Virus record (IMG/VR): IMGVR_UViG_3300045988_117710
Reading direction: 5' to 3' (one strand)
Origin: a virus
DNA length: 64,000 nt
In this document: positions 2,679 to 27,386 of the stretch, in pieces
Numbering within the stretch: position 1 is the first letter of the stretch
Layout: each line of letters opens with the position of its first letter
Notes under the pieces: generated by a model
Told to the model about the DNA's origin: nothing
Databases searched by the model: none
The model's input: the letters and a program-made list of their open reading frames with translations, nothing else
Position numbers and translations under genes: made by a program

Positions 2679-3875
2679 GTGAAAGAATTTAAAGATATGA
2701 TTATGAAGGAAGCAAAGGAAGAGATGTTAGCTTTACAACATCCTTATGTAGATTCATCTCATTTAATGTTAGCTTTACTTCGTTCTAGTGATTTCGGTGG
2801 TTCAAGAGAGTTTATGATGCGTCATGGTATTTCTTATGAGTTGTTCTATGATACTATAATAGAAGTAATTGGTAAGGGTACGGTAGAGGATAAGAATACT
2901 CCTTATACTCCTGCTCTTAAACAAGTATTGAGTGCTTATACAGGAATGGCAAAGAAGAGACAGAGTGATGATCCTTCGTTAATTATGTTATTATGTTTAC
3001 TTCAGTTCTATGAAGGTGTTGGTATTCGTTTATTGATGAATATCGGTGTTGATATAGATGATTTAATTGAGGACCTTGAAGAGTTATTGGATAATTCTTT
3101 AGATAAGTTACTTAAGAAGTATGGATGTCTTACTGATTTAAATAAAGAAGTTCGTGAGAATAACACAGTGGTTACTGGGTTGGATGAGCAATTACAACAA
3201 TTGTGTAAGTATCTTTTAAAGATTCAGAAACCTAATGTTATTGTTTTAGGTGAACCTGGTGTTGGTAAGACAGCTCTTGTTGAGAAGTTAGCTGTTGCTA
3301 TTAATGAGAAGAAAGTTCCTAAGTTTCTTCAGGATTTAAGAGTTATTCAATTATCTTTAGGTTCTGCAGTTGCTGGTACTAAGTATCGTGGTGAATTTGA
3401 AGAGAAGATTAATGGAATAATTGAAGCGATGACTAAGAAACGTAATGTTATTCTATTTATTGATGAGATTCATATGATGGTAGGTGCTGGTGGAGCCGAA
3501 GGTGCTATTGATGCTTCTAATCTATTTAAACCGGTATTAGCTCGTGGTAAGATTAGAATGATTGGTGCAACTACTAATACAGAGTATAAAGAGTTTGTAT
3601 GTTCTGATAAGGCATTTGCTAGACGTTTCAATACTATTGAGATTCTAGAAACTACTGAAGAAGAGACTATGGCAATTTTATCTAAAGCAAAGGTTAAGCT
3701 TGAGAAACATTATGAGATTAAGCTTACTCATAATGATTTGGTTAAGGTTTATAAGGAAGCTACTCATAGAAGTGGTAGAATGCCAGATGTTGCTTTAGAT
3801 GCTTTAGAGGAATATTGTGTTGACCTTTATTATAATAGAGAGTCAGAGAAGGAAACTGAAGAGGTGAGTGTTTAA
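2679..3875 (+). CDS. Clp-type AAA+ ATPase (Clp_N repeats plus single D1 nucleotide-binding domain)
   Basis: Clp N-domain repeats (HLMLALL, SLIMLLCLL); Walker A GEPGVGKTALVEKLA; Walker B ILFIDEIHMMVGAG; KYRGEFEEK and ARGKIRMIGATT match the ClpA/B/C D1 domain; no second AAA domain. Confidence 0.75.
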   Translation: MKEFKDMIMKEAKEEMLALQHPYVDSSHLMLALLRSSDFGGSREFMMRHGISYELFYDTIIEVIGKGTVEDKNTPYTPALKQVLSAYTGMAKKRQSDDPSLIMLLCLLQFYEGVGIRLLMNIGVDIDDLIEDLEELLDNSLDKLLKKYGCLTDLNKEVRENNTVVTGLDEQLQQLCKYLLKIQKPNVIVLGEPGVGKTALVEKLAVAINEKKVPKFLQDLRVIQLSLGSAVAGTKYRGEFEEKINGIIEAMTKKRNVILFIDEIHMMVGAGGAEGAIDASNLFKPVLARGKIRMIGATTNTEYKEFVCSDKAFARRFNTIEILETTEEETMAILSKAKVKLEKHYEIKLTHNDLVKVYKEATHRSGRMPDVALDALEEYCVDLYYNRESEKETEEVSV

Positions 3876-4525
3876 TGAGTGTTATTATTGCAAAGAAGAT
3901 TAAGAATGGTTTTGTTTTAGCAGGTGATTCTCAAGGTACTGTTGGTACTCATAGAACTACTGTTACTAAGATATTTAAAGCTCCTAAAGAGGAGAATGTA
4001 TTTATTGGTGTGGTTGGTAGATTACGTGATGCTAATATAGTTGCATCTGTAGATAGTATTTTAGATTCCAATGCTATTCGAAGAGGTAACTTGGACGCTA
4101 ATAGTTTAGTTTCTTATACTGTTCCTGAACTTCAGAAGTCTTTAAAGGAACAAGGTGCTTTATCTGTTGATGGTGGATTGCTTTGTTGGAATTCTGAAAT
4201 TATTATTGTTTATAAAGATAAGGCATTCTTAATTGATTCAGACTTTTGTGTTATTGAGATAGATGATTTTGCTGCAATTGGTGCTCCACAGGATTTTGCT
4301 TATGGTGCATATGCAATTCTTAAGAAGTTTAAATCTAAGTTACCTAAGTTGTCTGATTTTGATTTAGTCAAAGAGATTATGAAGATGACTATTGAAGAAA
4401 CTATTCATGTGTTCTATCCTATTTGGATGGTTGATACTAGTACAACTAATGCAGATTTCATAGAATTCAAGGGTTCAATTGTTGAGGAAAAGAAATCTAC
4501 AAAAGATAGTAAGGAAGAGGAATAA
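3875..4525 (+). CDS. hslV: HslV-like Ntn-hydrolase peptidase (proteasome beta-like)
   Basis: N-terminus [24 protein letters not shown] aligns with HslV [41 protein letters not shown] aligns with IAIGSGGPYAQAAARAL; Ser replaces Thr at the nucleophile position; start overlaps the ATPase stop (ATGA). Confidence 0.65.
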   Translation: [216 protein letters not shown]

Positions 4526-4563: not shown

Positions 4564-5262
4564 ATGAATGAAGTTAAAGACGAATTTCATTTTAGAGATT
4601 TGAAGGCAGATGAGATTACTGTTAAGGCATTTCCAATTGATAATGGCATTTCAGTTATTCTTTATAAAGATGCTAGAGTTGATATGACTATTCTTAATGA
4701 AACTGTAGGTCCTAAGAATTGGACTAGACTTTATCCTCATGGAGCTGCTTATTGTGAAGTATCTATTTGGGATGCTGATAAGAATGCTTGGATAACTAAA
4801 GGTGATTATGGTCAATGTGATTTTGGTACTAATTCAGAGAAAGGAACTGCTTCTGATTCATTCAAGAGAGCATGTTTTAACTGGGGCATAGGAATCGAAT
4901 TATATACTTGCCCTGTCATTTGTATTCCGAAGCATTTTGTGACGACTGTGGCTGCTAAAATGGGCTTAAAAGTGGTTGATGAGCTTTATGTTTCAGAGTT
5001 CAAAGTTAAGGATCATGTTATTACTGATATTTCAGTTGTTAGTAAACTTTCTGGTCAACTTATTTACTGTTTTAAGAATGGAGCAGAGGTTAAAGTAGAA
5101 CCTAAACTTACTTATCAAAATCAATTAAGAGTTTTCATTAGTGGTATTGAGGGATTGACTATTTCAGATGTTGCTCAAGAGTTTAAGCTTAATGGAACTT
5201 CTTCTGAAGATGAATTCAAGTCTGCTTTGGATAAGTTGAAGGAAAGGTATAATGCGAAGTAA
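4564..5262 (+). CDS. Rad52/Sak-like single-strand annealing protein
   Basis: Motif TASDSFKRACFNWGIGIELY matches the Rad52-family signature (SDAxKRA...GIGRYLY). Confidence 0.7.
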   Translation: MNEVKDEFHFRDLKADEITVKAFPIDNGISVILYKDARVDMTILNETVGPKNWTRLYPHGAAYCEVSIWDADKNAWITKGDYGQCDFGTNSEKGTASDSFKRACFNWGIGIELYTCPVICIPKHFVTTVAAKMGLKVVDELYVSEFKVKDHVITDISVVSKLSGQLIYCFKNGAEVKVEPKLTYQNQLRVFISGIEGLTISDVAQEFKLNGTSSEDEFKSALDKLKERYNAK

Positions 5263-5887
5263 TGGTTTAAGAATTGGTGGAAGTGATATTCCTACTTTGT
5301 TAGGTATTAATCCATTCAAGGATTTATATACTTTACTTCTTGAGAAGTGTAAGTTTAAAGAAGTTGTATTTGAAGATAATGATTTTACTTTATATGGGAA
5401 AGCAATTGAACCTTTAATTAGGGATTATCTTAATTCAGAAATGTTTAAGGATAATCCTATTGCTCCTTATGACTTCTGGGAGAATGAATTAGGTTTTGTT
5501 TCTAGGACTGATGGTAAGAATACTAATACTATTGTGGAGATTAAGTCTACATCTGTAACTCATAATACTGCAGATGAATATATGAATTATTTATGTCAAT
5601 TGATATTCTATATTTGGAGGTTGTCATTGAGAGATGGTTTCACTTATCGTGGTGTTCTTGCTATTTATGAGCGACCAAAGGATTTTAGAAATCAGTTACC
5701 TGATAAGGTTGTTTTTGATCCAAGTCGTTTACAAGTGTTTGAAGTAAATTTTGATCGTTATCAAGATAATGTTTTGGTAAGTATTAAGACAGCAATAGAT
5801 AATTTTGATTATTATGCTAATAGACTTAATGAGGATCCATTTCTAACAGAATCAGAGTTATTTGGTACAAATGTTGTCATCGAATAA
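5252..5887 (+). CDS. YqaJ/lambda-Exo-like PD-(D/E)XK recombination exonuclease
   Basis: N-terminal IGGSDIPTLLGINPFK resembles the YqaJ motif IGGSDxxxxxGxSPYK; VEIKST (E-x-K); directly downstream of the annealase. Confidence 0.6.
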   Translation: MRSNGLRIGGSDIPTLLGINPFKDLYTLLLEKCKFKEVVFEDNDFTLYGKAIEPLIRDYLNSEMFKDNPIAPYDFWENELGFVSRTDGKNTNTIVEIKSTSVTHNTADEYMNYLCQLIFYIWRLSLRDGFTYRGVLAIYERPKDFRNQLPDKVVFDPSRLQVFEVNFDRYQDNVLVSIKTAIDNFDYYANRLNEDPFLTESELFGTNVVIE

Positions 5888-5894
5888 CTCTTTT

Positions 5895-5903
5895 TCGTAT
5901 AAT
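5895..5903 (+). promoter_or_regulatory. phage promoter-like motif TCGTATAAT
   Basis: Exact 9-mer after CTCTTTT; possible -35 TTGTCA 18 nt upstream; precedes ORF 5923. Confidence 0.45.
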
Positions 5904-5922: not shown

Positions 5923-6171
5923 ATGAGTGAAGATGTTAAGTTAACTTATTTAGGGTGTCATTGGTATGAAGGTAATGATAGTTATTGTTATGTGTATATA
6001 GATGAGAATAACAAAGGTTTCTTTATCTATACTAAAGAAGCTGATTCTGATTTAGAAACAGTTTATGTTATGAATGGTGAATCTGTTTCTTATATGTGTG
6101 GTGTTGCAATTGATTCTATTGATTTACAAGCAAGTTTAAATGTAATTGATTATGGTTATTTCAATAATTAG
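5923..6171 (+). CDS. hypothetical protein
   Basis: ORF track; RBS GGAGGAG 7 nt upstream. Confidence 0.4.
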   Translation: MSEDVKLTYLGCHWYEGNDSYCYVYIDENNKGFFIYTKEADSDLETVYVMNGESVSYMCGVAIDSIDLQASLNVIDYGYFNN

Positions 6172-6186
6172 TTGAAAGGATTATTT

Positions 6187-6630
6187 ATGAAGATTATTCT
6201 AGATGAAGATGTTAAGGGTAAAGGTAAGAAAGGTCAGATGATAGAAGTTGCTGATGGTTATGGTTCTTTTCTTATCAGAAGTAAGAAGGCATCTTTAGCT
6301 ACTGAAGGTGTTATCAATAAGTGGAAGAGAATTCATGAAGAAGAAACTTTACAAGATAATTTGATTAGAAAAGAAGCAACTAATCTAAAGAATTTGATTG
6401 AGAAAGAAACATTTACTTTTAAGGTTAAAGCTGAAAATGGTAAGGTGTTTGGTTCTATTACAAGTTCTGATGTTGCAAAGAAACTTAATGAGAAGTATTC
6501 AAATCAAACTATTAAGATTGAGAAGAAGGATATAACTATTCCTAAGACTTCTACTTTAGGTGTTTATCAAGCCAAGGTAGTTCTTTACAAGGATATTGTA
6601 GCTGTGGCTTCTATTAATGTTTCTGAATAA
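6187..6630 (+). CDS. rplI: ribosomal protein bL9 homolog
   Basis: MKIILDEDVKGKGKKGQMIEVADGYGSFLI aligns with E. coli L9 [31 protein letters not shown]; length 147 aa; RBS AAAGGA 6 nt upstream of ATG 6187 (track ORF starts at TTG 6172). Confidence 0.8.
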   Translation: MKIILDEDVKGKGKKGQMIEVADGYGSFLIRSKKASLATEGVINKWKRIHEEETLQDNLIRKEATNLKNLIEKETFTFKVKAENGKVFGSITSSDVAKKLNEKYSNQTIKIEKKDITIPKTSTLGVYQAKVVLYKDIVAVASINVSE

Positions 6631-7225: not shown

Positions 7226-7517
7226 CTTGGAAGAATTTAAACCAAGAGATTTTTCAACTATTGCTCGTCAGATACAAGATGTTATTGAAAGAGATTGTAC
7301 TTTCAGTAGTTGCAGGAGACGAGAATTAATTAATGAAATTGATAGGTGTATCAAAGATAACTTTTATCGAGCTCCAGAATTAGCTTTCGAGAGTTGGAAT
7401 GATTTAGCAAATGTTCTTAATTCCTATTTAGTCCCAAGTAATTCTAGATGGGAGACAGAGATTATGTGTATCTTTGGTGATTTAGGACCTGTTGATGATT
7501 ATTGGGATGGTGATTAG
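7215..7517 (+). CDS. hypothetical protein
   Basis: ORF track. Confidence 0.4.
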   Translation: MVISLEEFKPRDFSTIARQIQDVIERDCTFSSCRRRELINEIDRCIKDNFYRAPELAFESWNDLANVLNSYLVPSNSRWETEIMCIFGDLGPVDDYWDGD

Positions 7518-7518
7518 T

Positions 7519-8349
7519 ATGGGAAAGGAAAAGAAGAATACTTTAGGAACAAGGATGAAGGAGTATGAAGCTGTTAGTAAGAATCATCTGATGAGAAGAA
7601 CTCCTGTTGTTATAAGATTGGATGGTAAAGCATTTCATACTTTTACTAGAGGTTTAAATAAACCTTTTGATTCTGATTTTGTTACTATGATGCAACAAAC
7701 TATGTTACATTTATGTGAGAATATTCAAGGATGTGTTTTAGGTTATACTCAATCTGATGAGATTACTTTAGTCCTTGTTGATTATCAGAATAGAGATTCT
7801 TGTGCTTGGTTTGATAATCAAGTTCAAAAGATTGCTAGTATTAGTGCTAGTATGGCTACTCTATACTTTAATAGAGAGTTGTCTGAAATGTTGAGAGATT
7901 TAGAAGAGGATTTGGCTGCTGCGGATTATAGTTTACCTCAAGCTCATATGTATGAAACTAATTCAAAGAAGTATGATAAGTGGTATGATAAAGAGTATAG
8001 AGCTGTGTTTGATTCTAGGGTGTTTAATTTACCTCAATATGAAGTTATTAATAATTTGATTTGGAGACAGCAAGATGCAACTAGAAATTCTATTAATAGT
8101 GTTGCTCAAAGTCTTTTCTCACATAAGGAACTTCAAGGTATTAGTAGTAAGGATCTTCAGAATAAGATGTTAACAGAGAGGGATGTCAATTGGAATGATT
8201 ATCCAACACATCTTAAACGTGGTTGTTGTGCGATTAAGGATTCTGAAGGTAAGTGGGTTTTAGATATCAATATTCCTATTTTTACTGAAGATAGAAATTA
8301 TATTGATAGGTTGGTCTTTTTAGAGGATGGTGAAGAGAATGCTATTTAA
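7519..8349 (+). CDS. Thg1-like protein (tRNA-His guanylyltransferase family 3'-5' nucleotidyltransferase)
   Basis: VVIRLDGKAFHTF matches Thg1 VVVRLDGRNFHRF; GYTQSDEITLVL matches AYGQSDEYSFVF; ASISASMATLYF matches ASQFASSYVFYW; start uncertain (7519 or 7555). Confidence 0.75.
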   Translation: MGKEKKNTLGTRMKEYEAVSKNHLMRRTPVVIRLDGKAFHTFTRGLNKPFDSDFVTMMQQTMLHLCENIQGCVLGYTQSDEITLVLVDYQNRDSCAWFDNQVQKIASISASMATLYFNRELSEMLRDLEEDLAAADYSLPQAHMYETNSKKYDKWYDKEYRAVFDSRVFNLPQYEVINNLIWRQQDATRNSINSVAQSLFSHKELQGISSKDLQNKMLTERDVNWNDYPTHLKRGCCAIKDSEGKWVLDINIPIFTEDRNYIDRLVFLEDGEENAI

Positions 8350-9388: not shown

Positions 9389-9668
9389 GGGACGTCTTAA
9401 GTTACCATGTAAGGAAGGTACTGTTGATGTTATTAAAGCCAATGCTGATGCTTTTCTAGATGTTGTTGAAACTGAATTTACTTGTTGTGAGTATGATATT
9501 TATGAAGCAGAGTATAATAATGAAGATGTTGTTATAATTGATTATAATATTATGGCTCATACTGTTGCTACTTGTAAGAGTGAGTTATCACATTTCAAGA
9601 AGGAGATTAAGAGATTCTTCAGAGAAAAGCCAGAGAATATTATTAGTATGACTTATGATAAGATTTAA
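9366..9668 (+). CDS. hypothetical protein
   Basis: ORF track; followed by terminator hairpin and promoter motif. Confidence 0.4.
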   Translation: MSLKKGIKGRLKLPCKEGTVDVIKANADAFLDVVETEFTCCEYDIYEAEYNNEDVVIIDYNIMAHTVATCKSELSHFKKEIKRFFREKPENIISMTYDKI

Positions 9669-9704
9669 GAAAGAGAGTTTATAGCTCTCTTTCTTTCGTA
9701 TAAT
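9667..9704 (+). promoter_or_regulatory. terminator hairpin (11-bp stem) immediately followed by TCGTATAAT promoter motif
   Basis: AAGAAAGAGAG loop TTTATAG CTCTCTTTCTT (9667-9695), then TCGTATAAT 9696-9704. Confidence 0.5.
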
Positions 9705-13039: not shown

Positions 13040-13045
13040 AAGGAG

Positions 13046-13252
13046 ATGGTTTCATTGAAGATTATTGTTCAAAACGGTAATGTTGATGCAGCACTTAGAA
13101 AGTTAAAAGCTTCTTTAGGAAACTCTGGTACTATTCAAGCTCTTAAGGAGAAAGAATACTACATTAAACCTGGTGAGAAGAGAAGACTTAAGAAAGAGCA
13201 AGGCATCAAGAACTGGAGAAAACAACAAAGAAAAATGAATAACTATAGATAA
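13046..13252 (+). CDS. rpsU: ribosomal protein bS21 homolog
   Basis: KIIVQNGNVDAALRKLKASL and EKEYYIKPGEKRRLKKEQ align with bS21 ([20 protein letters not shown] and RREFYEKPTTERKRAK); possible true start TTG 13055 with RBS AAAGGAG upstream. Confidence 0.75.
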   Translation: MVSLKIIVQNGNVDAALRKLKASLGNSGTIQALKEKEYYIKPGEKRRLKKEQGIKNWRKQQRKMNNYR

Positions 13253-13379: not shown

Positions 13380-13562
13380 ATGAAAAAGTTACGTAGAAGT
13401 ACTAAAGATTATTGTTTTATGGGAGTATGTGGTGGTTTAGCTGAGTATTTCGATATTGATTCTAGTATCGTTCGTCTTATTTGGTTAGCTGCTGTGTTAT
13501 TTTTTGGCTCTGGTATTTTATTATACTTGATTATGTGTTTAGTATTACCGAAGGAGGTGTAA
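13380..13562 (+). CDS. PspC-domain membrane protein
   Basis: [38 protein letters not shown] matches the PspC domain ([20 protein letters not shown]...GGSGILLYI); RBS GGAGG upstream of ATG 13380. Confidence 0.7.
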
Positions 13563-18382: not shown

Positions 18383-18768
18383 GGGGATGTTCTGGTTTCG
18401 ACAGTAGGAATGTCATTATGATTGCATGCAGTAGGTTGCTACTTTAAAGGACAAAAACAATAAATGCAAATTTCAAAAACTTTATAGCAAATGTTAAAGC
18501 TTCTTTAGCAAATATGTTTGCTGCTCCAGTTGTAGCTTAGTATAAAACAACTTATCTATAAGAAGATTTACATATGGATGTTCTTATAGATATCGTATAA
18601 ACATATGTAAGACATTGAGGATCCAATAGTCAATGTTTTAATTTATTGGGTAGGTTAAACTTATTGTAGGTGATTAACCTGTAAGATAATAATTACAATC
18701 AAGCATGTGAATGAAATTGTAGGTTGAGTTTTTATTGGACACGAGTTCAATTCTCGTCATCTCCACCA
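18383..18768 (+). ncRNA. ssrA: tmRNA (SsrA), one-piece
   Basis: 5' end GGGGATGTTCTGGTTTCGACAGTAGG matches the tmRNA consensus GGGGCTGATTCTGGATTCGAC; 3' end GGACACGAGTTCAATTCTCGTCATCTCCACCA gives T-arm plus acceptor with a G3-U70 wobble (Ala identity element); internal tag frame GCA AAT GTT AAA GCT TCT TTA GCA AAT ATG TTT GCT GCT CCA GTT GTA GCT TAG. Confidence 0.8.
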
Positions 18769-18769
18769 T

Positions 18770-18843
18770 GCGGGTATCGTTCAGTGGTAGGACCTCTGCC
18801 TTCCAAGCAGACGACGCCGGTTCGAATCCGGCTACCCGCTCCA
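18770..18843 (+). tRNA. tRNA-Gly (anticodon UCC)
   Basis: Manual cloverleaf; anticodon loop CTTCCAA; acceptor GCGGGTA/TACCCGC; encoded CCA. Confidence 0.8.
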
Positions 18844-18847
18844 TTAT

Positions 18848-18921
18848 GGGAGTATAGCCAAGTGGTAAGGCAATGGACTGCAACTCCATGATCGTAGGTT
18901 CAAATCCTACTACTCCCTCCA
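18848..18921 (+). tRNA. tRNA-Cys (anticodon GCA)
   Basis: Manual cloverleaf; loop ACTGCAA; acceptor GGGAGTA/TACTCCC; CCA encoded. Confidence 0.8.
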
Positions 18922-19070
18922 AGGGAAGTACTGTTCTGAAGAACAATTTATATATCTATATAATTCTAAATCCCTGTCATAGAATTATATTAATCGATTA
19001 ACACTGCAGGGTTAATTAGTATGGACAATGCTTTCGAGGTTTTTCATTTTTTACCTCCTTTCTCTTATTT

Positions 19071-19145
19071 GGTCTGTTAGTCTATCGGCTACGACGCTGC
19101 CCTGTCACGGCAGAGGGACGGGGTCAACTCCCGTACAGACCGCCA
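19071..19145 (+). tRNA. tRNA-Asp (anticodon GUC)
   Basis: Manual cloverleaf; loop CTGTCAC; acceptor GGTCTGT/ACAGACC; atypical T-loop GTCAACT. Confidence 0.65.
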
Positions 19146-19150
19146 TTATA

Positions 19151-19223
19151 GGGAAGTAGTTCAATGGTAGAACAGTGGTCTCCAAAACCACGGACGTGGG
19201 TTCGATTCCTACCTTCCCTGCCA
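19151..19223 (+). tRNA. tRNA-Trp (anticodon CCA)
   Basis: Manual cloverleaf; loop CTCCAAA; acceptor GGGAAGT/CTTCCCT. Confidence 0.75.
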
Positions 19224-19234
19224 TTGTGTAATTT

Positions 19235-19287
19235 AAATCAATAAGTTCTCTGAATTTATTGATTTTTTATTTTGGTTGTCGTATAAT
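19235..19287 (+). promoter_or_regulatory. terminator hairpin after tRNA-Trp followed by TTGATT, 17 nt, TATAAT promoter (TCGTATAAT)
   Basis: AAATCAATAA loop TTATTGATTT plus T-run (19235-19270); TTGATT 19259-19264; TCGTATAAT 19279-19287. Confidence 0.5.
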
Positions 19288-19303
19288 GTTTGTAAGGAAG
19301 GTG

Positions 19304-20158
19304 ATGATTGTGGGTAGACCTGCAAAGAAAGAACAACTTATTCAACGTTGTGAAGAACTTAATGTTTTCTATAGTGAGAAGATGACAATTAAGGAATTAG
19401 AAGCACTTATTGCTGATAAGGAAAGAGGAATGGTAGCTCCTGTTGTGATTACTGAAGATATGATGACCCCTTATGAGTATTTTCAAAATGTTAAGGATTC
19501 TATTAAGTCTATGAATGACGATGATCTTACTAAGATGTATACTGCTGCAAGTACTTTAATGGAGAAGTATCAAGTATTTGGTCAAGAGAAGGCAGAGAAG
19601 AGATTAGCATTTCATATCAAGACTATTCTTAAGGAACATGATTTATTACAATTGGGAATTAATAAGTTTGTTTATAAAGATGATATTACTAATTACATAG
19701 ATGTTATTAGTAAGAAGCCAGTTAAAATTATTGAGATGAAGAATTTCCCTAGAGAGATTCCTGATGATATGATTGATGTTGTTACGAAGACTAAAGGTAT
19801 CTTTGATGAGTATTATGTTTTATTTACTGATTACTCTGAAGGTGAATTAGTTAAGGAAGTTGAGAAGGAAAGAGATCCAATTTTATTTGGAGGTTTCTGT
19901 ACTAAGAATAGAGATATTGTTTCTGATAGATTCTATTACTTAGGTGATTGGGTTGATGAGTATTGTGATTTAACTTTAGATAAGCTTATTAAGGAGACTT
20001 CTAAAGATATTGTTAAGACTATTTCTATTCCTACTAATAAGGATAAGTTGATTTCTCAACTTAATGCTTACGAAGAGAAAGGTGATAGGTATATAGTAAA
20101 TACACCTAAGAAAGAACATTTCTTCAGTAAGATTAAGAGAGCTTTTAAGGTTAAGTAG
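19304..20158 (+). CDS. hypothetical protein
   Basis: ORF track (19259) trimmed to ATG 19304 with RBS AAGGAAGG; downstream of promoter motif 19279. Confidence 0.4.
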   Translation: MIVGRPAKKEQLIQRCEELNVFYSEKMTIKELEALIADKERGMVAPVVITEDMMTPYEYFQNVKDSIKSMNDDDLTKMYTAASTLMEKYQVFGQEKAEKRLAFHIKTILKEHDLLQLGINKFVYKDDITNYIDVISKKPVKIIEMKNFPREIPDDMIDVVTKTKGIFDEYYVLFTDYSEGELVKEVEKERDPILFGGFCTKNRDIVSDRFYYLGDWVDEYCDLTLDKLIKETSKDIVKTISIPTNKDKLISQLNAYEEKGDRYIVNTPKKEHFFSKIKRAFKVK

Positions 20159-20159
20159 T

Positions 20160-20723
20160 ATGGCTGTTCCTAGAGATATTGATTTAACTCGTCATCTAGA
20201 TTTTAATAAGGATGAAGTAATAGCCAAGTCTGTTAAGCTTCCAAAGGAAGTTAAGGATACTTCTTATAAGAGATATAATGAGTATGAGAATACTTCCTTT
20301 AGAAGTACTACTAGTTTAACTACTGCACCTGGTTTAGATGATTGGGGTTTAGGTTCTTTTTCAACTAATTTCTCTAGTACAAGTTCTGATTCTTTTAAAC
20401 CTTTTTCTTTAGTTCCTACTATTAAGGTAGAGGAGAGGGTTTGTTGGAGAAAGCTTTATAAGGATCCTAATGTTTTTGAACCTAGGTATACTGCAGATGA
20501 GTGGGTTGAGGTATTTAAGAATAGAAACTTCCCAATGGGTAGTAGGGAAGATAGGATGAAAGTATTTGCAGAAGTTTTGAAGGATAAGTATGATCCTTGG
20601 AAGAATAGATGTGAGAGATGTGGGAAGAAGTTCAATCCTAATAATTGTTTTTCTCATTTCTATGGTTTATGTCAAGATTGTAATATTATTCTAGAAAATC
20701 AAGTTTATTCTGTGAATCTTTAA
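20160..20723 (+). CDS. hypothetical protein with C-terminal Cys cluster
   Basis: ORF track; CERCGKKFNPNNCFSHFYGLCQDCN. Confidence 0.4.
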   Translation: MAVPRDIDLTRHLDFNKDEVIAKSVKLPKEVKDTSYKRYNEYENTSFRSTTSLTTAPGLDDWGLGSFSTNFSSTSSDSFKPFSLVPTIKVEERVCWRKLYKDPNVFEPRYTADEWVEVFKNRNFPMGSREDRMKVFAEVLKDKYDPWKNRCERCGKKFNPNNCFSHFYGLCQDCNIILENQVYSVNL

Positions 20724-20734
20724 GAGGTGATATT

Positions 20735-21025
20735 GTGAAGGATTATCTAGATATAGTTAAGAGATGTAAGGAACAGAATATAGATATTGATGGTTGTCAT
20801 ATTTATATTTATCCTAATAATTTGGATGGGGAGTTTTGTCATAAGGGGACTTTATCACAGGATGGTGAATGGCTTTGTATTCCTTTGAAAAAGTTTGATG
20901 AGTCGTTCGAAATGGATTATTTCGAACCAGTGTGTTACCAAGTTAAAACGTCTTTTAAAACGTATTTAAAGGGTGATTCTCTTTGGTATCTTGTAGAGTG
21001 TTTTGTACTTTATGATAATAATTAA
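20735..21025 (+). CDS. hypothetical protein
   Basis: ORF track; GTG start with RBS AAGAGGTGA. Confidence 0.35.
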   Translation: MKDYLDIVKRCKEQNIDIDGCHIYIYPNNLDGEFCHKGTLSQDGEWLCIPLKKFDESFEMDYFEPVCYQVKTSFKTYLKGDSLWYLVECFVLYDNN

Positions 21026-21030
21026 TTGAG

Positions 21031-21312
21031 GTGATTATAGTGTTGAGTGATACAAATGTTAACTTTATATGTTTTGCAAGTAGGAAGTCTATAAGGAAAT
21101 GGGTAGTTTCTGAAGTTAGATATGATTATGAATGGGATGGATATTGTGTTCATAAGTTAGGTGAGAATGAGTATTGTGAATTTGGAACTCCTTTTGCTGC
21201 TTATAATCATGCAAAGAATATTTCTAATAAGTATAAGAAGAAATACTCTGATGCAGTTGTAATTGTTAAGGAAGTTGGAGTAACAGCGGAGGATCTTGTT
21301 TCGAATGGATAA
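21031..21312 (+). CDS. hypothetical protein
   Basis: ORF track. Confidence 0.35.
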   Translation: MIIVLSDTNVNFICFASRKSIRKWVVSEVRYDYEWDGYCVHKLGENEYCEFGTPFAAYNHAKNISNKYKKKYSDAVVIVKEVGVTAEDLVSNG

Positions 21313-21778
21313 GCCAATTATATTTCTAGATTTTGATGGTGTTGTTGAAACTATTTATTGGGAGAAAGATAAGGACGGTTCTTGGTCTTGGAATGTTCAT
21401 AAGTCTGGGAGAGAAGAACTGAATAATAAACAAGCGATTGGCTGGCTTAATGAGCTTTATAAGAAAGTTCCTTATGACATAGTGGTTTCTAGTACTTGGA
21501 GGATTGGAATGTCTGTTGAAGAGCTTCAAACTCTGATTACTAATTCTGGATTTAATAAAGAAATTAGGGTTTTAGATAAGACTCCTATTCTTTATCAACA
21601 GAGGGGTGTTGAGATTCAGAGATGGATAGATGATAATGATTTTAAAGGGAAGTTCATCATTATAGATGATGATTCTGATATGTGTCATTTACTTCCATTA
21701 CTTGTAAGATGTGATTGTCAGCTTGGTTTTACTATTTATGATTATAATAAAGCATTAAGATTGTTAGATGAATCTTAA
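21296..21778 (+). CDS. HAD-like phosphatase (putative nucleotidase)
   Basis: HAD motifs IIFLDFDGVVET (DxDGV), VVSSTWR, FIIIDDDSD. Confidence 0.5.
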   Translation: MFRMDKPIIFLDFDGVVETIYWEKDKDGSWSWNVHKSGREELNNKQAIGWLNELYKKVPYDIVVSSTWRIGMSVEELQTLITNSGFNKEIRVLDKTPILYQQRGVEIQRWIDDNDFKGKFIIIDDDSDMCHLLPLLVRCDCQLGFTIYDYNKALRLLDES

Positions 21779-21791
21779 GAAAGGATTGTTT

Positions 21792-22019
21792 ATGGATAAG
21801 GTTAATGTTAGAGAGTTGTTTATACTTGCAATGTTTCTTTTGACTACTGTTATTTCTATTGGTCTTTATAATCAGAATATTGGATTAAGAAAGACTATTG
21901 AAGAGAAGGATAAAGAGATTGAAGATTTAACTTTTGATAATTCTCGTTGTAATATGGCTTATGATGAGTTTTATGAATTATTTATGGATTGTGTTTCTTA
22001 TGAGAAGTGTACAGAATAG
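21792..22019 (+). CDS. small membrane protein
   Basis: ORF track (21768) trimmed to ATG 21792 with RBS AAGGA; hydrophobic segment LFILAMFLLTTVISIGLY. Confidence 0.4.
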   Translation: MDKVNVRELFILAMFLLTTVISIGLYNQNIGLRKTIEEKDKEIEDLTFDNSRCNMAYDEFYELFMDCVSYEKCTE

Positions 22020-22020
22020 T

Positions 22021-22029
22021 TCGTATAAT
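22021..22029 (+). promoter_or_regulatory. phage promoter-like motif TCGTATAAT
   Basis: Exact 9-mer 18 nt upstream of ORF 22047. Confidence 0.45.
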
Positions 22030-22046
22030 ATTTATGAGGTGATAAT

Positions 22047-22298
22047 ATGAATGTAAATATTCAATGTGATAAGTGTAAGAATGTATATCCTGGTGATGAT
22101 ATTCTAATGGTTAACAATTTTGGTACTGCAGAACTTGTTGGTGCTATTTGTACTAGTTGTTATAATTCTATTGGTAATTGTGAAGCAGAGTGTTGTGATT
22201 GTTGTGAATCTGATGTTTGTGATGGGCAATTGACTATTGATGATTTCATTGACGATAATGATATTGAGGTTCTAACAGATGTTGACTCTACCTATTAA
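22047..22298 (+). CDS. hypothetical Cys-rich protein
   Basis: ORF track; CDKCKN...CTSCYNSIGNCEAECCDCCESDVCDG; downstream of promoter motif 22021. Confidence 0.4.
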   Translation: MNVNIQCDKCKNVYPGDDILMVNNFGTAELVGAICTSCYNSIGNCEAECCDCCESDVCDGQLTIDDFIDDNDIEVLTDVDSTY

Positions 22299-22617
22299 GA
22301 AGAAATGGTTTGATATGATTCTTTCTGGAGAGAAGAAAGAAGAGTATCGTGAAATTAAACCTTATTATGATTCTAGATTTATAATATTTAAGTCCCAAAG
22401 TGCAAACAATATATTTCAAAGTGCAAATTTATTAACTGGTGAAGTTAATACTTATGAACATTGTCAAGATATTATTTTTAGGAATGGTTATTCTGGTTCT
22501 AGTCCTTGTATTAAGTGTAAGGTTAGTCTATCTCGAGGAGAAGGTAAACCTGAGTGGGGTGCTGAACCTGGTGTTGAGTATTATATCCTTAATATCTTAA
22601 GTGTTGAGAAGTTATAG
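22279..22617 (+). CDS. hypothetical protein, possible ASCH/PUA-like domain
   Basis: KKKWFDMILSGEKKEEYR resembles the ASCH N-terminal motif; weak. Confidence 0.3.
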   Translation: MLTLPIKKKWFDMILSGEKKEEYREIKPYYDSRFIIFKSQSANNIFQSANLLTGEVNTYEHCQDIIFRNGYSGSSPCIKCKVSLSRGEGKPEWGAEPGVEYYILNILSVEKL

Positions 22618-22626
22618 AGGTGTTTT

Positions 22627-22845
22627 ATGAAGTTAGATGAAAATACTTTAATTAGATATACTGTTGAAGATAAGAATGGTGAGATTGTTCAGACGACTTT
22701 TACTTTACAACAAGTTGAAGGTAGTGTTCCTAATTTCTATCAAGCTTTTAAAGATGCTTTAAGAGATTTAGAAGATTTTGATGTTGATAATTCTGAAATT
22801 ATTTCAAGAGAGATTGTGAGTGATTCTGATGAAGAAGATTTATAG
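22627..22845 (+). CDS. hypothetical protein
   Basis: ORF track. Confidence 0.35.
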   Translation: MKLDENTLIRYTVEDKNGEIVQTTFTLQQVEGSVPNFYQAFKDALRDLEDFDVDNSEIISREIVSDSDEEDL

Positions 22846-23281
22846 TAAGTATGACAATATAGGAGATTTAGTAGAAGCTCTTAAGGAAGTTCAAGTTGGT
22901 TCTAAATTCAAGTTCTGGCATGAGAAGAAGAGATATACTTGTATGGGTAGAAGTGAGAACTTTATTATCATTTCTAAACCATTTAATCTGAAAGAAGATT
23001 GTTGTATGTATTCTATTCTTGATCTTACTCAGATGAGATGCAATAGAGATAATCTAGTGTTTGGGATTTATGATTATTCTAATGAAGAAGATTGTAAGGA
23101 TGCATTAGAAGCCCTAGAAAGATCTCTAGTACCATGGGAAGAGAGATTTATTAAGTGTGAACCTGATGAAGATGGAAGAGTAAAACTGATTCCTAAATAT
23201 CCAGAAGCAGACTTTACTTTAGAGATTTCACAACGTGGTGGTGCAAATATTGTTGATGCAATTGAAGAAGTTTATATATAA
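22820..23281 (+). CDS. hypothetical protein
   Basis: ORF track. Confidence 0.4.
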   Translation: MILMKKIYSKYDNIGDLVEALKEVQVGSKFKFWHEKKRYTCMGRSENFIIISKPFNLKEDCCMYSILDLTQMRCNRDNLVFGIYDYSNEEDCKDALEALERSLVPWEERFIKCEPDEDGRVKLIPKYPEADFTLEISQRGGANIVDAIEEVYI

Positions 23282-23287
23282 AATTAG

Positions 23288-23316
23288 TTGACTTTTTATT
23301 TCCTTTGTGTTATATT
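23288..23316 (+). promoter_or_regulatory. sigma70-like promoter (TTGACT, 17 nt, TATATT)
   Basis: TTGACT at 23288-23293, 17-nt spacer, TATATT at 23311-23316. Confidence 0.45.
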
Positions 23317-23349
23317 AAGTTTAGTATATGAGGCATATGAAGTTCCTTG

Positions 23350-23445
23350 GTTAGGTTGTTAACCCGGTAGTCGTAGGTTCGAGTCCTACTCCATACTTCC
23401 GAAAGGTCGGTGGATAGCTCAGTGGATAGAGCACCGTTTACTTCT
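23350..23445 (+). other. two adjacent tRNA-like fragments (3'-type fragment, then 5'-type fragment)
   Basis: 23374-23398 has T-arm GTAGG-TTCGAGT-CCTAC plus acceptor-like TCCATAC but no D-arm upstream; 23407-23436 has acceptor-like CGGTGGA, TA, D-arm GCTC-AGTGGATA-GAGC, then no anticodon or T-arm; acceptor strands only 5/7 complementary. Confidence 0.3.
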
Positions 23446-23519
23446 CGCCTTAATATATTTATAGAACTGAAATATGGACTGTAAAGACTTTTCTTTATAT
23501 ATTATGTTGAGGAGTTTTT

Positions 23520-23972
23520 ATGGAACAGTTTAAAGTTTGTAGTAAGTGCAAAAGAGAATTATCATTAGATTGTTTTAGGTGGAAAAATAAATCTAAGGGT
23601 ATAAGACATTATCGATGCAGAGAGTGTCAAAAGGAATCTGATAAGAAGCTTTATTTGGAAAGTGAGTCAAGACGTCGTACTGTAAGGGGTATAGCAGATT
23701 CACAGAAGCAAAGAAATCTTCAGATTGTAGATGAAGCAAAGAAGTGTGGTTGTTGCAAGTGTGGTGAGATGAGACCATTTGTGTTAGATTTTCATCATGT
23801 TGATCCAACTACAAAGGATAGTGAGATAGCCCATTTGTTAAAGTCTGCTTCAGTTGAGCATTTATTAGATGAGTTATCCAAGTGTGTTGTCTTTTGTGCT
23901 AATTGTCATAGGGAATATCATTATCTTAATAAGACTTTTGGTATTACTATTGATGAGTATCTAAAGAAATAG
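23520..23972 (+). CDS. HNH endonuclease
   Basis: HNH motif region FVLDFHHVDPTTKDS...CVVFCANCHREYH plus N-terminal Zn-ribbon CSKCKRE...CRECQ. Confidence 0.7.
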   Translation: MEQFKVCSKCKRELSLDCFRWKNKSKGIRHYRCRECQKESDKKLYLESESRRRTVRGIADSQKQRNLQIVDEAKKCGCCKCGEMRPFVLDFHHVDPTTKDSEIAHLLKSASVEHLLDELSKCVVFCANCHREYHYLNKTFGITIDEYLKK

Positions 23973-23975
23973 TAT

Positions 23976-24051
23976 GGGCCGATAGCTCAGTTGGTAGAGC
24001 ACGACACTGAAAATGTCGGTGTCGGTGGTTCAATCCCACCTCGGCCCACCA
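23976..24051 (+). tRNA. tRNA-Phe (anticodon GAA)
   Basis: Manual cloverleaf; loop ACTGAAA; acceptor GGGCCGA/TCGGCCC; CCA encoded. Confidence 0.8.
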
Positions 24052-24056
24052 TATAT

Positions 24057-24132
24057 CGCGGAGTGGAGAAGTGGTTATCTCGTCTGGCTCATAACCAGAA
24101 GAGCGTGGGTTCAAATCCCACTTCCGCAACCA
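24057..24132 (+). tRNA. tRNA-Met (anticodon CAU), initiator-like C1-A72 mismatch
   Basis: Manual cloverleaf; loop CTCATAA; acceptor CGCGGAG/TTCCGCA leaves C1 opposite A72, as in bacterial tRNA-fMet; anticodon stem has only two G-C pairs. Confidence 0.65.
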
Positions 24133-24218
24133 TTTTGTTTGTGAAAGCAAACAATCCTGAAACGCCTAACTTAGATCGGAGATCAAGTATTTAGGTAAGT
24201 TGAGAAAGGAGGAAGATT

Positions 24219-24503
24219 ATGGCGAAACCTGTAAATGCGGGTAAACCATGGAGTGTTGAAGATTTAGTTATTCTTGCTAATACAGCACCAACTAAACACA
24301 ATATTTCTTTTCTAGCAAAGTCATTAGGTAGAACTGAGGATGCTGTTTATAGTCAGTATTATTTATTGTTCTGTGCACCTAGTTACTTGAAACAAGCTGA
24401 TGGAAGTATTCTAGAACAACACAAGAGAATTCTTCAAGCAAAGAAGATAGCTGGTTTACACGTTTCTATAACACCTAAAGCAGATTCTTATAAAGTTTCT
24501 TAA
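24219..24503 (+). CDS. Myb/SANT-like HTH DNA-binding protein
   Basis: KPWSVEDLVILANTAPTKHNISFLAKSLGRTEDAVYSQY resembles the Myb/SANT repeat; RBS AAAGGAGG. Confidence 0.4.
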   Translation: MAKPVNAGKPWSVEDLVILANTAPTKHNISFLAKSLGRTEDAVYSQYYLLFCAPSYLKQADGSILEQHKRILQAKKIAGLHVSITPKADSYKVS

Positions 24504-24547
24504 TTTGTTATAGATTATAGGAAAGTCATTAAGACTTTCTGATATGT

Positions 24548-24634
24548 GCCTAGTTGTGATAATTGGTAGTCGGGCGGTCTTGAAAACCGTTGGTCGGAAA
24601 CGGCTTGGGGGTTCGAGTCCCTCACTAGGCGCCA
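24548..24634 (+). tRNA. tRNA-Ser (anticodon UGA), class II
   Basis: Manual fold; loop CTTGAAA; long variable arm; acceptor GCCTAGT/ACTAGGC; CCA encoded. Confidence 0.7.
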
Positions 24635-24660
24635 TTTAATTAGTTCATAGAGGTGAAGAT

Positions 24661-25230
24661 ATGAATAAGACTATAAGTCATTTTAAGACAATTACTAAAC
24701 ATAAGTTTTATGTTATGAAGTTTTGTTTCAAGTGTCATTTATTTAAGAGAGGTTTATTACATGATCTTTCTAAATATAGTCCAATTGAGTTCTGTACTAG
24801 TGTGAAGTATTATACTGGTAATAGAAGTCCTATTGATAATGAGAAAGATGTTAAGGGTTATTCATTAGCTTGGCAACATCATAAAGGTCATAATCCTCAT
24901 CATTGGGAGTATTGGATTGACAATGTTGGTACAAGAACAAACAATGCAGGAAGAATTCCTTATAAGTATGTTGTAGAAATGATTTGTGATTGGCTTGCTG
25001 CTGGTATAGTTTATTCTAAAAAGAATCCTGATTATAATGAACCATATGATGTTCCTGTGAAACATTATAATGCCCATACTCATGAAAGAATATTTCATGA
25101 GGATACACAAGAGTTAATTGAGTTCTTTCTAGATAGAATTGCTAGAGATGGAATTAATGATTTTTGTAGAATTGCAAGAGAAAAGAAACTTTCTATAATT
25201 AAGAATTACCTAAATAAGGAGGTTTCATAA
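24661..25230 (+). CDS. putative HD-domain phosphohydrolase
   Basis: H...HD (KCHLFKRGLLHDLSKY) then His-rich WQHHKGHNPHHWEYW; weak family call. Confidence 0.35.
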   Translation: MNKTISHFKTITKHKFYVMKFCFKCHLFKRGLLHDLSKYSPIEFCTSVKYYTGNRSPIDNEKDVKGYSLAWQHHKGHNPHHWEYWIDNVGTRTNNAGRIPYKYVVEMICDWLAAGIVYSKKNPDYNEPYDVPVKHYNAHTHERIFHEDTQELIEFFLDRIARDGINDFCRIAREKKLSIIKNYLNKEVS

Positions 25231-25232
25231 TT

Positions 25233-25331
25233 ATGGGTTTCTGGTTAATTATATTTGTTTTATTGGATTGGATAAGTTTAGAGTCAGCTGTTGGTCTTTA
25301 TCTTATCTATTTAATTTTTGTAAAGGATTAA
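25233..25331 (+). CDS. small hydrophobic peptide (32 aa)
   Basis: Not in ORF track (short); RBS AAGGAGG 9 nt upstream of ATG 25233; MGFWLIIFVLLDWISLESAVGLYLIYLIFVKD. Confidence 0.35.
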   Translation: MGFWLIIFVLLDWISLESAVGLYLIYLIFVKD

Positions 25332-25347
25332 TATATTGGAGGTATTT

Positions 25348-25521
25348 ATGAGTAAGCACAGTGGATTAGGATATCCATCAAAGAACTTAGTTAAAGAGAT
25401 AAGATATTCTAGAAAAGCTGCTGTTGCTTTCGTAAATAATCATAGGATAAGATATTTTATTTATACTAGATTATCCAAGTATTATGAACACAAACATTAT
25501 AAAGAAATTATGTCTTCGTAG
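25348..25521 (+). CDS. hypothetical small basic protein
   Basis: ORF track (25336) trimmed to ATG 25348 with RBS GGAGG; 3' end overlaps tRNA-Lys by about 10 nt. Confidence 0.3.
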   Translation: MSKHSGLGYPSKNLVKEIRYSRKAAVAFVNNHRIRYFIYTRLSKYYEHKHYKEIMSS

Positions 25522-25587
25522 CTCAGTTGGTAGAGCAACTGACTCTTAATCAGTGGGTCCAGAGTTCGAGTCTCTGCGAGGACACCA
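25512..25587 (+). tRNA. tRNA-Lys (anticodon CUU)
   Basis: Manual cloverleaf; loop CTCTTAA; acceptor GTCTTCG/CGAGGAC (one G-U); CCA encoded. Confidence 0.7.
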
Positions 25588-25590
25588 TAT

Positions 25591-25682
25591 GTCCACTTAC
25601 TCAAGTTGGTGAAGAGGACAGATTGCTAATCTGTTAGATCAGTTTTACTGGTGCGAAGGTTCGAGTCCTTCAGTGGACGCCA
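25591..25682 (+). tRNA. tRNA-Ser (anticodon GCU), class II
   Basis: Manual fold; loop TTGCTAA; long variable arm; acceptor GTCCACT/AGTGGAC. Confidence 0.7.
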
Positions 25683-25700
25683 TTTTGTGTTTATGGCACT

Positions 25701-25776
25701 GCTTCTTTAGCTCAGTCGGTAGAGCGCACGGCTGTTAACCGTTAGGTCGTAGGTTCGAGTCCTACAAGAAGCGCCA
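25701..25776 (+). tRNA. tRNA-Asn (anticodon GUU)
   Basis: Manual cloverleaf; loop CTGTTAA; acceptor GCTTCTT/AAGAAGC. Confidence 0.7.
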
Positions 25777-25786
25777 TTAGTTTTTT

Positions 25787-25870
25787 GGGCAGTTAGCGAA
25801 GCGGTCAAACGCGGCAGACTGTAAATCTGTTCCTTCGGGTTCCGTGGTTCGAATCCACGACTGCCCACCA
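25787..25870 (+). tRNA. tRNA-Tyr (anticodon GUA), class II
   Basis: Manual fold; loop CTGTAAA; long variable arm TCCTTCGGGTTCCG; acceptor GGGCAGT/ACTGCCC. Confidence 0.7.
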
Positions 25871-25873
25871 TTT

Positions 25874-25950
25874 GTCCTTTTAGCTCAGCTGGATAGAGCA
25901 TCGCCCTTCTAAGGCGAGTGTCCTAGGTTCGAATCCTAGAGGGGACGCCA
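25874..25950 (+). tRNA. tRNA-Arg (anticodon UCU)
   Basis: Manual cloverleaf; loop CTTCTAA; acceptor GTCCTTT/AGGGGAC with two G-U pairs. Confidence 0.65.
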
Positions 25951-25956
25951 TAATAT

Positions 25957-26029
25957 CACACTGTATCCAAGTGGTTAAGGAGCCAGATATAGAACTGGTA
26001 ATTCAATGGTTCGAATCCATTCGGTGTGA
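25957..26029 (+). tRNA. atypical tRNA-like gene with noncanonical anticodon arm (identity undetermined; possible pseudogene)
   Basis: Good acceptor (CACACTG/CGGTGTG), D-arm and T-arm AATGG-TTCGAAT-CCATT, but anticodon arm CCAG-ATATAGAA-CTGG is one nt short of 5+7+5 (4-bp stem with 8-nt loop, or 6-nt loop with an A-A mismatch); no encoded CCA. Confidence 0.4.
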
Positions 26030-26076
26030 GTCACTTTCATCTATTTGAAGGCGCAATAGAATAGGTGAAACACTAT

Positions 26077-26151
26077 TGCCCGGTAGCCAAGTGGTAAGGC
26101 ACAAGACTTTGACTCTTGCATGCGCTAGTTCGAATCTAGCCCGGGCAGCCA
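26077..26151 (+). tRNA. tRNA-Gln (anticodon UUG)
   Basis: Manual cloverleaf; loop CTTTGAC; acceptor TGCCCGG/CCGGGCA; CCA encoded. Confidence 0.7.
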
Positions 26152-26182
26152 TTTAATATTTACCGAAAGAAGGTATTGCTAT

Positions 26183-26873: not shown

Positions 26874-26899
26874 TTTATTATTTAAGGGGTGATAGTATT

Positions 26900-27337: not shown

Positions 27338-27386
27338 TTTTATATATTATTGGTAGAGTAGATTTTATTTTAAAGGAGCTTTACCA

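Follow-up and report, generated by a model that had tools for sequence, protein, structure and literature searches.

Most of the ribosomal proteins reported from viruses are bS21. When Mizuno et al. (2019; PMC6375957) surveyed viral ribosomal proteins, bS21 accounted for 88% of the detections, and bL9 was present only as an 86-residue N-domain fragment in Mycobacterium phage 32HC; it is not named among the proteins detected again in 424,225 viral contigs. A single ribosomal protein was present on more than 99% of the contigs that carried any, and two occurred on only 8 of 1403. The list of phage ribosomal proteins given by Al-Shayeb et al. comprises S4, S1, S21 and L7/L12 (PMC7162821), and we found no description of a full-length phage bL9 in the literature searched. 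Here we describe a 64,000-nucleotide stretch of viral DNA (IMG/VR record IMGVR_UViG_3300045988_117710; the whole stretch is called the window below), which encodes both a full-length bL9 and a bS21. An initial annotation of this sequence had named bS21 as the ribosomal protein found most often in phages and bL9 as a rarer one, in agreement with the figures of Mizuno et al. (2019; PMC6375957).

Virus-encoded bS21 is known from Pelagibacter phages HTVC008M and Mosig, from the huge phages of Al-Shayeb (2020) and from the Bacteroidetes-infecting phages of Chen (2022), and has been proposed to replace host bS21 and to favour initiation on phage mRNAs (PMC6375957, PMC7162821, PMC9723584). The S21 of the window resembles these proteins in being small and basic, encoded in a large phage genome, and under purifying selection. 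The known examples are mostly aquatic, whereas that of the window belongs to a gut phage and has an affinity to Bacillota; it is also without a basic N-terminal extension. Its gene lies in a module for nucleotide metabolism and translation, behind a sigma-A-like motif, whereas the gene of the lake phages is inside the late structural block (PMC9723584). When S21 was compared with GenBank phages by tblastn, the only annotated bona fide phage match was Pelagibacter phage Mosig, at 34% identity.

For bL9, the described phage homologue is that of 32HC, which has been discussed as a possible modulator of frameshifting (PMC6375957). It consists of the N domain and part of the helix, with the C domain replaced, in a 51-kb siphovirus, whereas the bL9 of the window is complete and is encoded by a large T4-like phage. 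In length, domain order, helix length and fold it is like the rplI product of Bacillota (G. stearothermophilus 1DIV; B. subtilis 7qgu and 7qv1), with which it has in common the N-domain motifs MKIIL, GxxG, V-x-DGYG-x-FLI and A35. It differs from these proteins in that identity is only 35–48%, the gene context is different, K94/Q95/I96 and H134 are replaced, and the helix is clade-specific.

The product of open reading frame (ORF) 6187–6630 is a full-length bL9. It starts MKIILDEDVKGKGKKGQMIEVADGYGSFLI and matches Pfam PF01281 (Ribosomal_L9_N; 2.3e-14, 53.1 bits against a cut-off of 20.7, residues 1–45) and PF03948 (Ribosomal_L9_C; 6e-16, 59.1 bits against a cut-off of 23.2, residues 62–146), as well as the NCBIfam equivalog TIGR00158 'L9', with 107.8 bits (cut-off 58.6) over positions 1–146 of the 148 in the profile. 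A PHROGs profile search gave no match to any PHROG family. The AlphaFold2 model has a mean predicted local distance difference test (pLDDT) score of 88.7 and is a dumbbell, in which the two globular domains are separated by one long helix of conserved length. Foldseek comparison with L9 chains in the PDB (1DIV and ribosome-bound L9) gave template modelling (TM) scores of 0.83–0.85, with a root-mean-square deviation of 2.5 Å over 147 residues, and the connecting helix aligns with that of bacterial L9 with zero indels. The closest PDB matches by sequence are G. stearothermophilus 1DIV and B. subtilis 7qgu. The earlier claim that this ORF is bL9 over its whole length is thus borne out by both Pfam domains, by TIGR00158 and by the fold. 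We take the start to be the ATG at 6187 rather than that of a longer ORF from TTG 6172, because of the 6-nt spacing from a Shine–Dalgarno (SD)-like AAAGGA (Table 1) and because the homologues are 145–147 residues long; the AAGG core is kept in five of six aligned relatives.

The ORF at 13046–13252, whose 68-residue translation includes KIIVQNGNVDAALRKLKASL and EKEYYIKPGEKRRLKKEQ, is a bS21 homologue. It matches Pfam PF01165 (Ribosomal_S21; 6e-15, 55.1 bits against a cut-off of 27), TIGR00030 (58.1 bits; cut-off 28.95) and PHROG 21469 'ribosomal protein S21' (1.5e-12), and its closest PDB matches by sequence are the bS21 chains of S. aureus 5nd8 and L. lactis 5myj. The protein is small and strongly basic (65–68 residues, isoelectric point (pI) 10.56, 18 K+R and 5 D+E). 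Its start is probably not the one first assigned. The AAGGAG that precedes it is directly adjacent to ATG 13046, with a spacer of 0 nt, and is 9 nt from TTG 13055; in several relatives the gene callers start S21 at the equivalent TTG, giving products of 64–66 residues. On the basis of this spacing and these starts, the coding sequence is probably 13055–13252, that is, 65 residues. Profile searches were the test named beforehand for the two assignments, and they clearly upheld both, leaving only the start coordinate of S21 to be revised; the peptides that the initial annotation quoted for bL9 and bS21 are both found in the ORF products.

The window is from a large T4-like gut phage with a gp23-type capsid. 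Its GC content is 32.5%, and about 85 ORFs, 80 of them on the + strand, occupy 90% of the sequence. The major head protein of gp23 type is encoded at 45105–46499 (phrog_138, 1.3e-38), and other genes specify a tail-fibre protein, NrdD, a dUTPase, a phosphoribosyltransferase (PRTase), a YqaJ exonuclease and a Thg1-like enzyme. The closest cultured relatives of the capsid, at 29–36% identity, are T4-like myoviruses of Bacillota, namely Listeria phage LIS04, Bacillus phages SP-15 and HSE3, and Streptococcus phage GXN1; none of these is present in the tblastn results for L9 and S21 against GenBank phages. A 25-kb megablast query gave no match among GenBank phages, and nothing in the 64-kb window matched DNA polymerase A.

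The same synteny around the two ribosomal protein genes is found again on contigs of at least 12 metagenome samples, among them ERR4303161, SRR20950986 and the Hadza sample ERZ4561606, in which the relative is 68% identical; L9 identities as low as 51–68% are included. The conserved order is AAA+/proteasome-like, a 232-residue ORF, YqaJ, orf82, L9, Thg1, dUTPase, PRTase, S21, NrdD. All contigs fetched for L9 proteins of 55–98% identity (P0001–P0007), which are from different human and animal gut samples, show this phage synteny, and in the longer relatives L9 and S21 are about 5.5–7 kb apart, with Thg1, dUTPase and PRTase between them. Even the relatives that have diverged furthest, L091 and L093, have kept both genes; their L9 is 51–54% and their S21 80–82% identical to that of the window. 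Reading frames are intact in all relatives. One close relative is on a contig of 121.8 kb (ERZ28614623 scaffold_162), and the IMG/VR contig with an 80%-identical capsid is 181 kb long. Cellular L9 genes instead lie in the arrangement DHH-L9-DnaB (Bacillota) or rpsF-(ssb)-rpsR-rplI-dnaB (elsewhere), as does the 45%-identical L9 P0021, which is in DHH-L9-DnaB on the metagenome-assembled genome of a spore-former. The neighbours of the window L9 are YqaJ, orf82 and Thg1, and there is no DnaB or DHH match in the window; these non-rplI neighbours indicate that the phage L9 is a phage paralogue and not a host rplI. Contamination or chimeric assembly was considered and is ruled out by the recurrence of the synteny in many samples together with the absence of DnaB and DHH neighbours in the window. 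That both genes are phage-encoded, as initially proposed, is upheld by the gp23-type capsid, the tail fibre, the genome organization and the recurring synteny.

A tblastn search of GenBank phages with L9 returned 26 records, all at 36% identity or less, and the four that were inspected are bacterial DNA. These records (MT837010.1, MT835600.1, OR846603.1 and CAKLQH020000004.1; L097–L100) carry the labels 'Bacteriophage sp.', 'Enterococcus phage Efs 1-1-1' and 'Acinetobacter phage MD-2021a', and were rejected as phage L9 on account of their bacterial chromosomal context, either DHH-L9-DnaB or cyoABCDE-rpsF-rpsR-rplI-dnaB. In IMG/VR, no relative was retrieved when the window L9, an alignment of its clade or the YqaJ neighbour served as the query, and matches came only with a broader L9 alignment and with the capsid. 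The broader alignment identified three other putative viral contigs, with lengths between them of 92, 110 and 230 kb, that have a full-length L9: UViG_3300018475_000108 (L105), 3300028591_000126 (L106) and 3300028591_000080 (L107). Each has a 148-residue ORF at 6001–6447 with both Pfam L9 domains. As in the window, the context is not that of rplI: the neighbours are of kinds common in phages and include a T4 RnlA-like ligase, NAD synthase, nicotinate phosphoribosyltransferase, NUDIX/NrtR and a phosphoesterase. Their L9 proteins are only 30–32% identical to that of the window and form at least two further lineages, and are therefore probably independent acquisitions. L106 and L107 are 67% identical to each other in L9 and have lost the otherwise invariant F88-G89 motif. 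No S21 was found within 6 kb of L9 in any of the three. Given these three contigs, full-length phage bL9 is rare but recurrent, and it appears to be under-reported.

Both genes look like old acquisitions from Bacillota. A search of 5.8 billion proteins with L9 returned a small set at 55–98% identity and then, after a gap, ordinary bacterial L9 at no more than 48%. Identity inside the phage clade is 51–98%. A neighbour-joining tree was built from 45 sequences (10 phage, several of them nearly identical, and 35 best-hit bacterial). All 100 bootstrap replicates unite the phage L9 proteins in a single clade, which has a long stem and to which the tree assigns no particular sister group. The nearest named L9 proteins, at 35–46%, are from uncultured gut Bacilli, Erysipelotrichaceae, Haloplasmataceae, Izemoplasmatales and Acholeplasmatales. 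For S21, a word-indexed search returned close relatives only, and the distant ones came from an exhaustive search, in which the next cluster is only 51% identical and no bacterial S21 is above about 55%. Some of the nearest S21 proteins are chromosomal rpsU in an S21-YqeY arrangement, and one of these (L101) is on a Bacillota contig with sporulation-type YlbD/YlbE genes. Two sister phages, L095 (capsid 76% identical; S21 at 4674–4874, P0130) and L104 (capsid 80%, the 181-kb IMG/VR contig; S21 at 4154–4354), have an S21 only 51% identical to that of the window, at a different locus beside DNA polymerase A and the capsid genes. Within this phage family S21 was either acquired twice or relocated.

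Rates of evolution were compared as pairwise NG86 ratios of non-synonymous to synonymous change (dN/dS). Approximate values are 0.15–0.58 for L9, in every pair except the nearly identical window and L006, and 0.11–0.31 for S21. For neighbouring genes compared with the window they are 0.05–0.10 (NrdD), 0.09–0.20 (Thg1) and 0.02–0.32 (YqaJ). These ratios give a clear indication of purifying selection on both genes, weaker on L9. Synteny, divergence, dN/dS and the phage clade together identify old, selected phage genes, and not contamination or recent capture.

Conservation is not uniform along L9. When phage L9 is compared with bacterial L9, identity is 57% in the N domain, 19% in the helix and 32% in the C domain; the N domain, which is known to anchor L9 to 23S rRNA, is the best-conserved part of the protein. 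Relative to the N domain the helix is better conserved among the phages (0.58 against 0.72) than among bacteria (0.28 against 0.62). Residues W46, D57, R61, P119, K120 and Y134 are invariant or nearly so in the phage proteins and rare or absent in bacteria. The pattern suggests a retained anchor and a re-tuned distal part, and should be treated as a lead only, because it comes from a small set of 10 phage proteins, several of them close to identical.

L9 and S21 lie behind copies of a promoter-like motif. The window has 15 copies of this 9-mer, TCGTATAAT, all of them on the + strand, the number expected being 0.43; TTGAYT is often present 17–18 nt ahead of it, and it often follows a hairpin; the tail-fibre and capsid genes are preceded instead by ATTATAGTAT. 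This 9-mer is probably an early or middle promoter class of the phage. The element upstream of orf82 matches 11 of 12 consensus positions, and its 9-mer is invariant in six relatives whose flanking proteins are 67–81% identical; it is the predicted start of a transcription unit that contains L9. The next copy is the predicted head of a unit that would run through dUTPase and PRTase to S21, since the motif does not recur after 9696 until 16179. This arrangement points to transcription of L9 and S21 before the late genes, from promoters like those read by host sigma A. Most phage genes have a strong GGAGG-type SD sequence.

Table 1. Positions of the ribosomal protein genes and associated features in the window.
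Feature	Position	Strand	Details
bL9 homologue	6187–6630	+	147 aa; N-terminal rRNA-binding domain, residues 1–39; long connecting helix, 40–73; C-terminal domain, 74–147
SD-like AAAGGA (L9)	6175–6180	+	6 nt 5' of the L9 ATG; read from the sequence
bS21 homologue	13046–13252	+	68 aa from ATG 13046; more probably 65 aa from TTG 13055
SD AAGGAG (S21)	13040–13045	+	identical sequence in relative L093
Promoter-like element	5874–5903	+	TTGTCA, 18 nt, TATAAT; extended TCGTATAAT at 5895–5903; 5' of orf82 (5923–6171) and L9
Second TCGTATAAT copy	9696–9704	+	directly 3' of hairpin 9667–9695
TCGTATAAT sites	1844, 5895, 9696, 16179, 19279, 22021, 40297, 40357, 50902, 52676, 53203, 54622, 60633, 61078, 62983	+	
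Thg1-like tRNA 3'-5' nucleotidyltransferase	7495–8349	+	Pfam Thg1, 6.6e-33; between L9 and S21 in all longer relatives
tmRNA and 23-tRNA array	18383–29774	+	tmRNA 18383–18768 (Rfam, 98.2 bits); tRNAs 18770–29774 (ARAGORN)

The window encodes other parts of a translation apparatus. The initial annotation had mentioned a transfer-messenger RNA (tmRNA), many tRNAs and Thg1 as the setting of the two genes, and ARAGORN, Rfam and Pfam confirm all three; Rfam gives 23 tRNA matches over the gathering score. The 23 tRNAs cover every amino acid except His, although the phage has an enzyme of the family of tRNA-His guanylyltransferases and 3'-5' polymerases. The target of this Thg1-like enzyme may be host tRNA-His or the repair of tRNA 5' ends. 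The tag encoded by the tmRNA is unusually long (ANFKNFIANVKASLANMFAAPVVA). A Clp_N-AAA+ ATPase (2679–3875) is followed directly by a proteasome/HslV-like subunit (3875–4525), and with the tmRNA these may form a self-contained tagging and degradation pair. The tRNA at 25956–26030 (+) has a normal 7-bp acceptor stem and an 8-nt anticodon loop, AUAUAGAA. ARAGORN gives it a four-base anticodon, 'atag', without an amino-acid identity, its Rfam score of 44 bits is the lowest in the array, and its minimum-free-energy fold is not a cloverleaf. This tRNA may decode quadruplets or act in the manner of a frameshifting tRNA, or it may be a copy that has degenerated; an exact look-up of ORF 26183–26569, aimed at relatives of this tRNA, found no record. 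A Pfam search of ten more ORFs (nine from S21 to the tail fibre, and 1871–2659) found no further translation factors.

Directly 3' of S21 and 5' of NrdD is a small membrane ORF (13380–13562, +), which is kept in the relatives, where its counterparts match Pfam PspC. The capsid region is flanked by two very large ORFs, 36069–40259 (1396 residues) and 46668–50804 (1378 residues), both on the + strand and without a PHROG match at 1e-5. In its C-terminal part the second is similar to a 637-residue ORF of L095, a sister phage, with 36% identity across some 200 residues.

In the reading that we consider likely, with a probability of about 0.65, the infected cell makes both proteins, and these enter host ribosomes by exchange, each at the peripheral position that it normally occupies. 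A lineage of large T4-like gut phages, probably growing on low-GC Bacillota hosts, acquired both genes long ago and has kept them under purifying selection, within a non-structural module for nucleotide metabolism and translation behind sigma-A-type promoter-like elements. Given these elements and the non-structural setting, L9 and S21 would probably be made before the late structural genes. They would then exchange into host 70S ribosomes at two peripheral and exchangeable sites: bL9 would use its conserved N domain to bind where the L1 stalk begins, at its base, and bS21 would bind on the 30S platform, beside the anti-Shine–Dalgarno tail of the 16S rRNA. Phage S21 might keep the ribosomes fully equipped, or bias them towards initiation on the strongly SD-led phage mRNAs, while phage L9 might hold the reading frame and the spacing when phage proteins are produced in a burst and polysomes are dense. 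Both would act alongside the phage tRNAs, tmRNA and Thg1.

Several published results are in line with such a scheme. E. coli 70S ribosomes have been found to take up viral bS21 and bL12, and the ribosomal proteins that bind loosely and can be exchanged include bS21 and bL9 (PMC6375957). bS21 is required for initiation on natural mRNAs (PMC6375957; PMC7162821), and L9 has been implicated in frame maintenance, in bypassing (hopping) of T4 gene 60 and in polysome spacing (reviewed in PMC10931766). Ribosome binding by the phage proteins is plausible, because the N domain is the best-conserved part of L9 and the pI values are high (9.4 for L9 and 10.6 for S21). The intact fold, the conserved N domain, purifying selection and the retention of the two genes together are compatible with the suggestion made in the initial annotation, that the phage remodels ribosomes.

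Other points weigh against ribosome exchange. What the data show directly is homology, fold, phage origin, conservation and selection, whereas the timing of expression, the incorporation into ribosomes and the effect on translation are what we infer from the genes and their setting. A generic sigma-70 consensus scan of the window was not above chance (41 sites against 47 expected), so that the proposed timing depends on the enriched TCGTATAAT motif only; a generic terminator scan of the window was likewise not above chance. The dN/dS ratios are approximate because dS in distant pairs is about 1 or above, near saturation, and the window and L006 differ in L9 by four non-synonymous changes and one synonymous change, a ratio of about 1 from too few changes to interpret. 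L9 is also the fastest-evolving of the genes compared: in L091 and L093 it is 51–54% identical to that of the window, against 90% for NrdD and 85% for PRTase. Finally, the bacterial C-domain consensus residues K94, Q95, I96, D112 and H134 are replaced in the phage clade, and W46, D57 and R61 in the helix are invariant there. Such clade-specific residues may point to a modified role and not to simple substitution for host L9.

The last of these points leads to an alternative that we regard as improbable, namely that phage L9 docks on the 50S subunit through its N domain and is there a competitor of host L9 and not its equivalent, with the helix and C domain re-tuned to change the normal action of L9. 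The result might be a looser or retuned frame maintenance or bypassing, or altered contacts between ribosomes that shift the collision sensing and rescue of the host. The replaced consensus positions and the full set of clade-invariant residues are what such a protein might show, as is the relatively better conservation of the helix in phages. L9 is at the interface of the B. subtilis collided disome 7qv1, which is one of the fold matches, and the roles reviewed for L9 include frame maintenance, hopping in T4 gene 60 and polysome spacing (PMC10931766). The phage also has a tmRNA and the tRNA with the 8-nt anticodon loop. Against this, the clade-specific residues may reflect no more than co-adaptation to the ribosome of an unsampled host, or drift on a long branch, and they are read from the same small set of phage sequences; nor was a frameshift or bypass site found in the phage, though no search was aimed at one. 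A more elaborate form of the idea, which we put forward as a rather remote speculation, is that the specialized L9 could permit quadruplet or +1 decoding by the 8-nt-loop tRNA, or blunt collision-triggered rescue and defence in the host, while the phage tmRNA and the ClpN-AAA+/HslV-like pair would clear the stalled products; with bS21 this would amount to a 'ribosome conversion kit' acting on both subunits.

It is also conceivable, if unlikely, that one or both proteins are used away from the ribosome, as small RNA-binding regulators or chaperones that, for example, repress host or phage mRNAs or bind the phage tmRNA or tRNAs. There are precedents: bL9 represses translation of exsA mRNA in P. 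aeruginosa (reviewed in PMC10931766), and bS21 is reported to belong to the OLE ribonucleoprotein of Bacillota (PMC12054373). The clade-specific helix and C domain of L9 would fit such a use. However, the architecture of both proteins is complete and the part of L9 that binds the ribosome is the one best conserved, no RNA target is evident close to the genes, and viral bS21 has been demonstrated to enter ribosomes (PMC6375957).

A lack of any adaptive function, the genes being a recent capture of host DNA, decaying passengers or an artefact of assembly or binning, is a legitimate worry in view of the mislabelled GenBank records (those inspected being 4 of 26), but it is extremely improbable and already effectively refuted by the synteny in at least 12 independent samples and on the 121.8-kb contig, by best bacterial identities of 48% (L9) and about 55% (S21) among the billions of proteins searched, and by the intact frames, dN/dS well below 1 and the monophyletic L9 clade.

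To our knowledge, virus-encoded ribosomal proteins are established but poorly understood, and only bS21 and bL12 have been studied by experiment. There is ample documentation of phage bS21, and the window extends a known phenomenon by one more case and does not constitute a system of a new type. Some virus-discovery pipelines discard contigs with 'ribosomal protein' genes as cellular contamination (PMC13037316), and since GenBank in turn holds bacterial DNA labelled as phage L9, phages like this one are easily lost or mis-scored. A complete phage bL9 that is maintained by selection offers a natural handle on the function of bL9, which is debated even in bacteria, where frame maintenance, bypassing and polysome spacing are all considered. 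With bL9 and bS21 encoded together, a single phage would touch both subunits of the ribosome.

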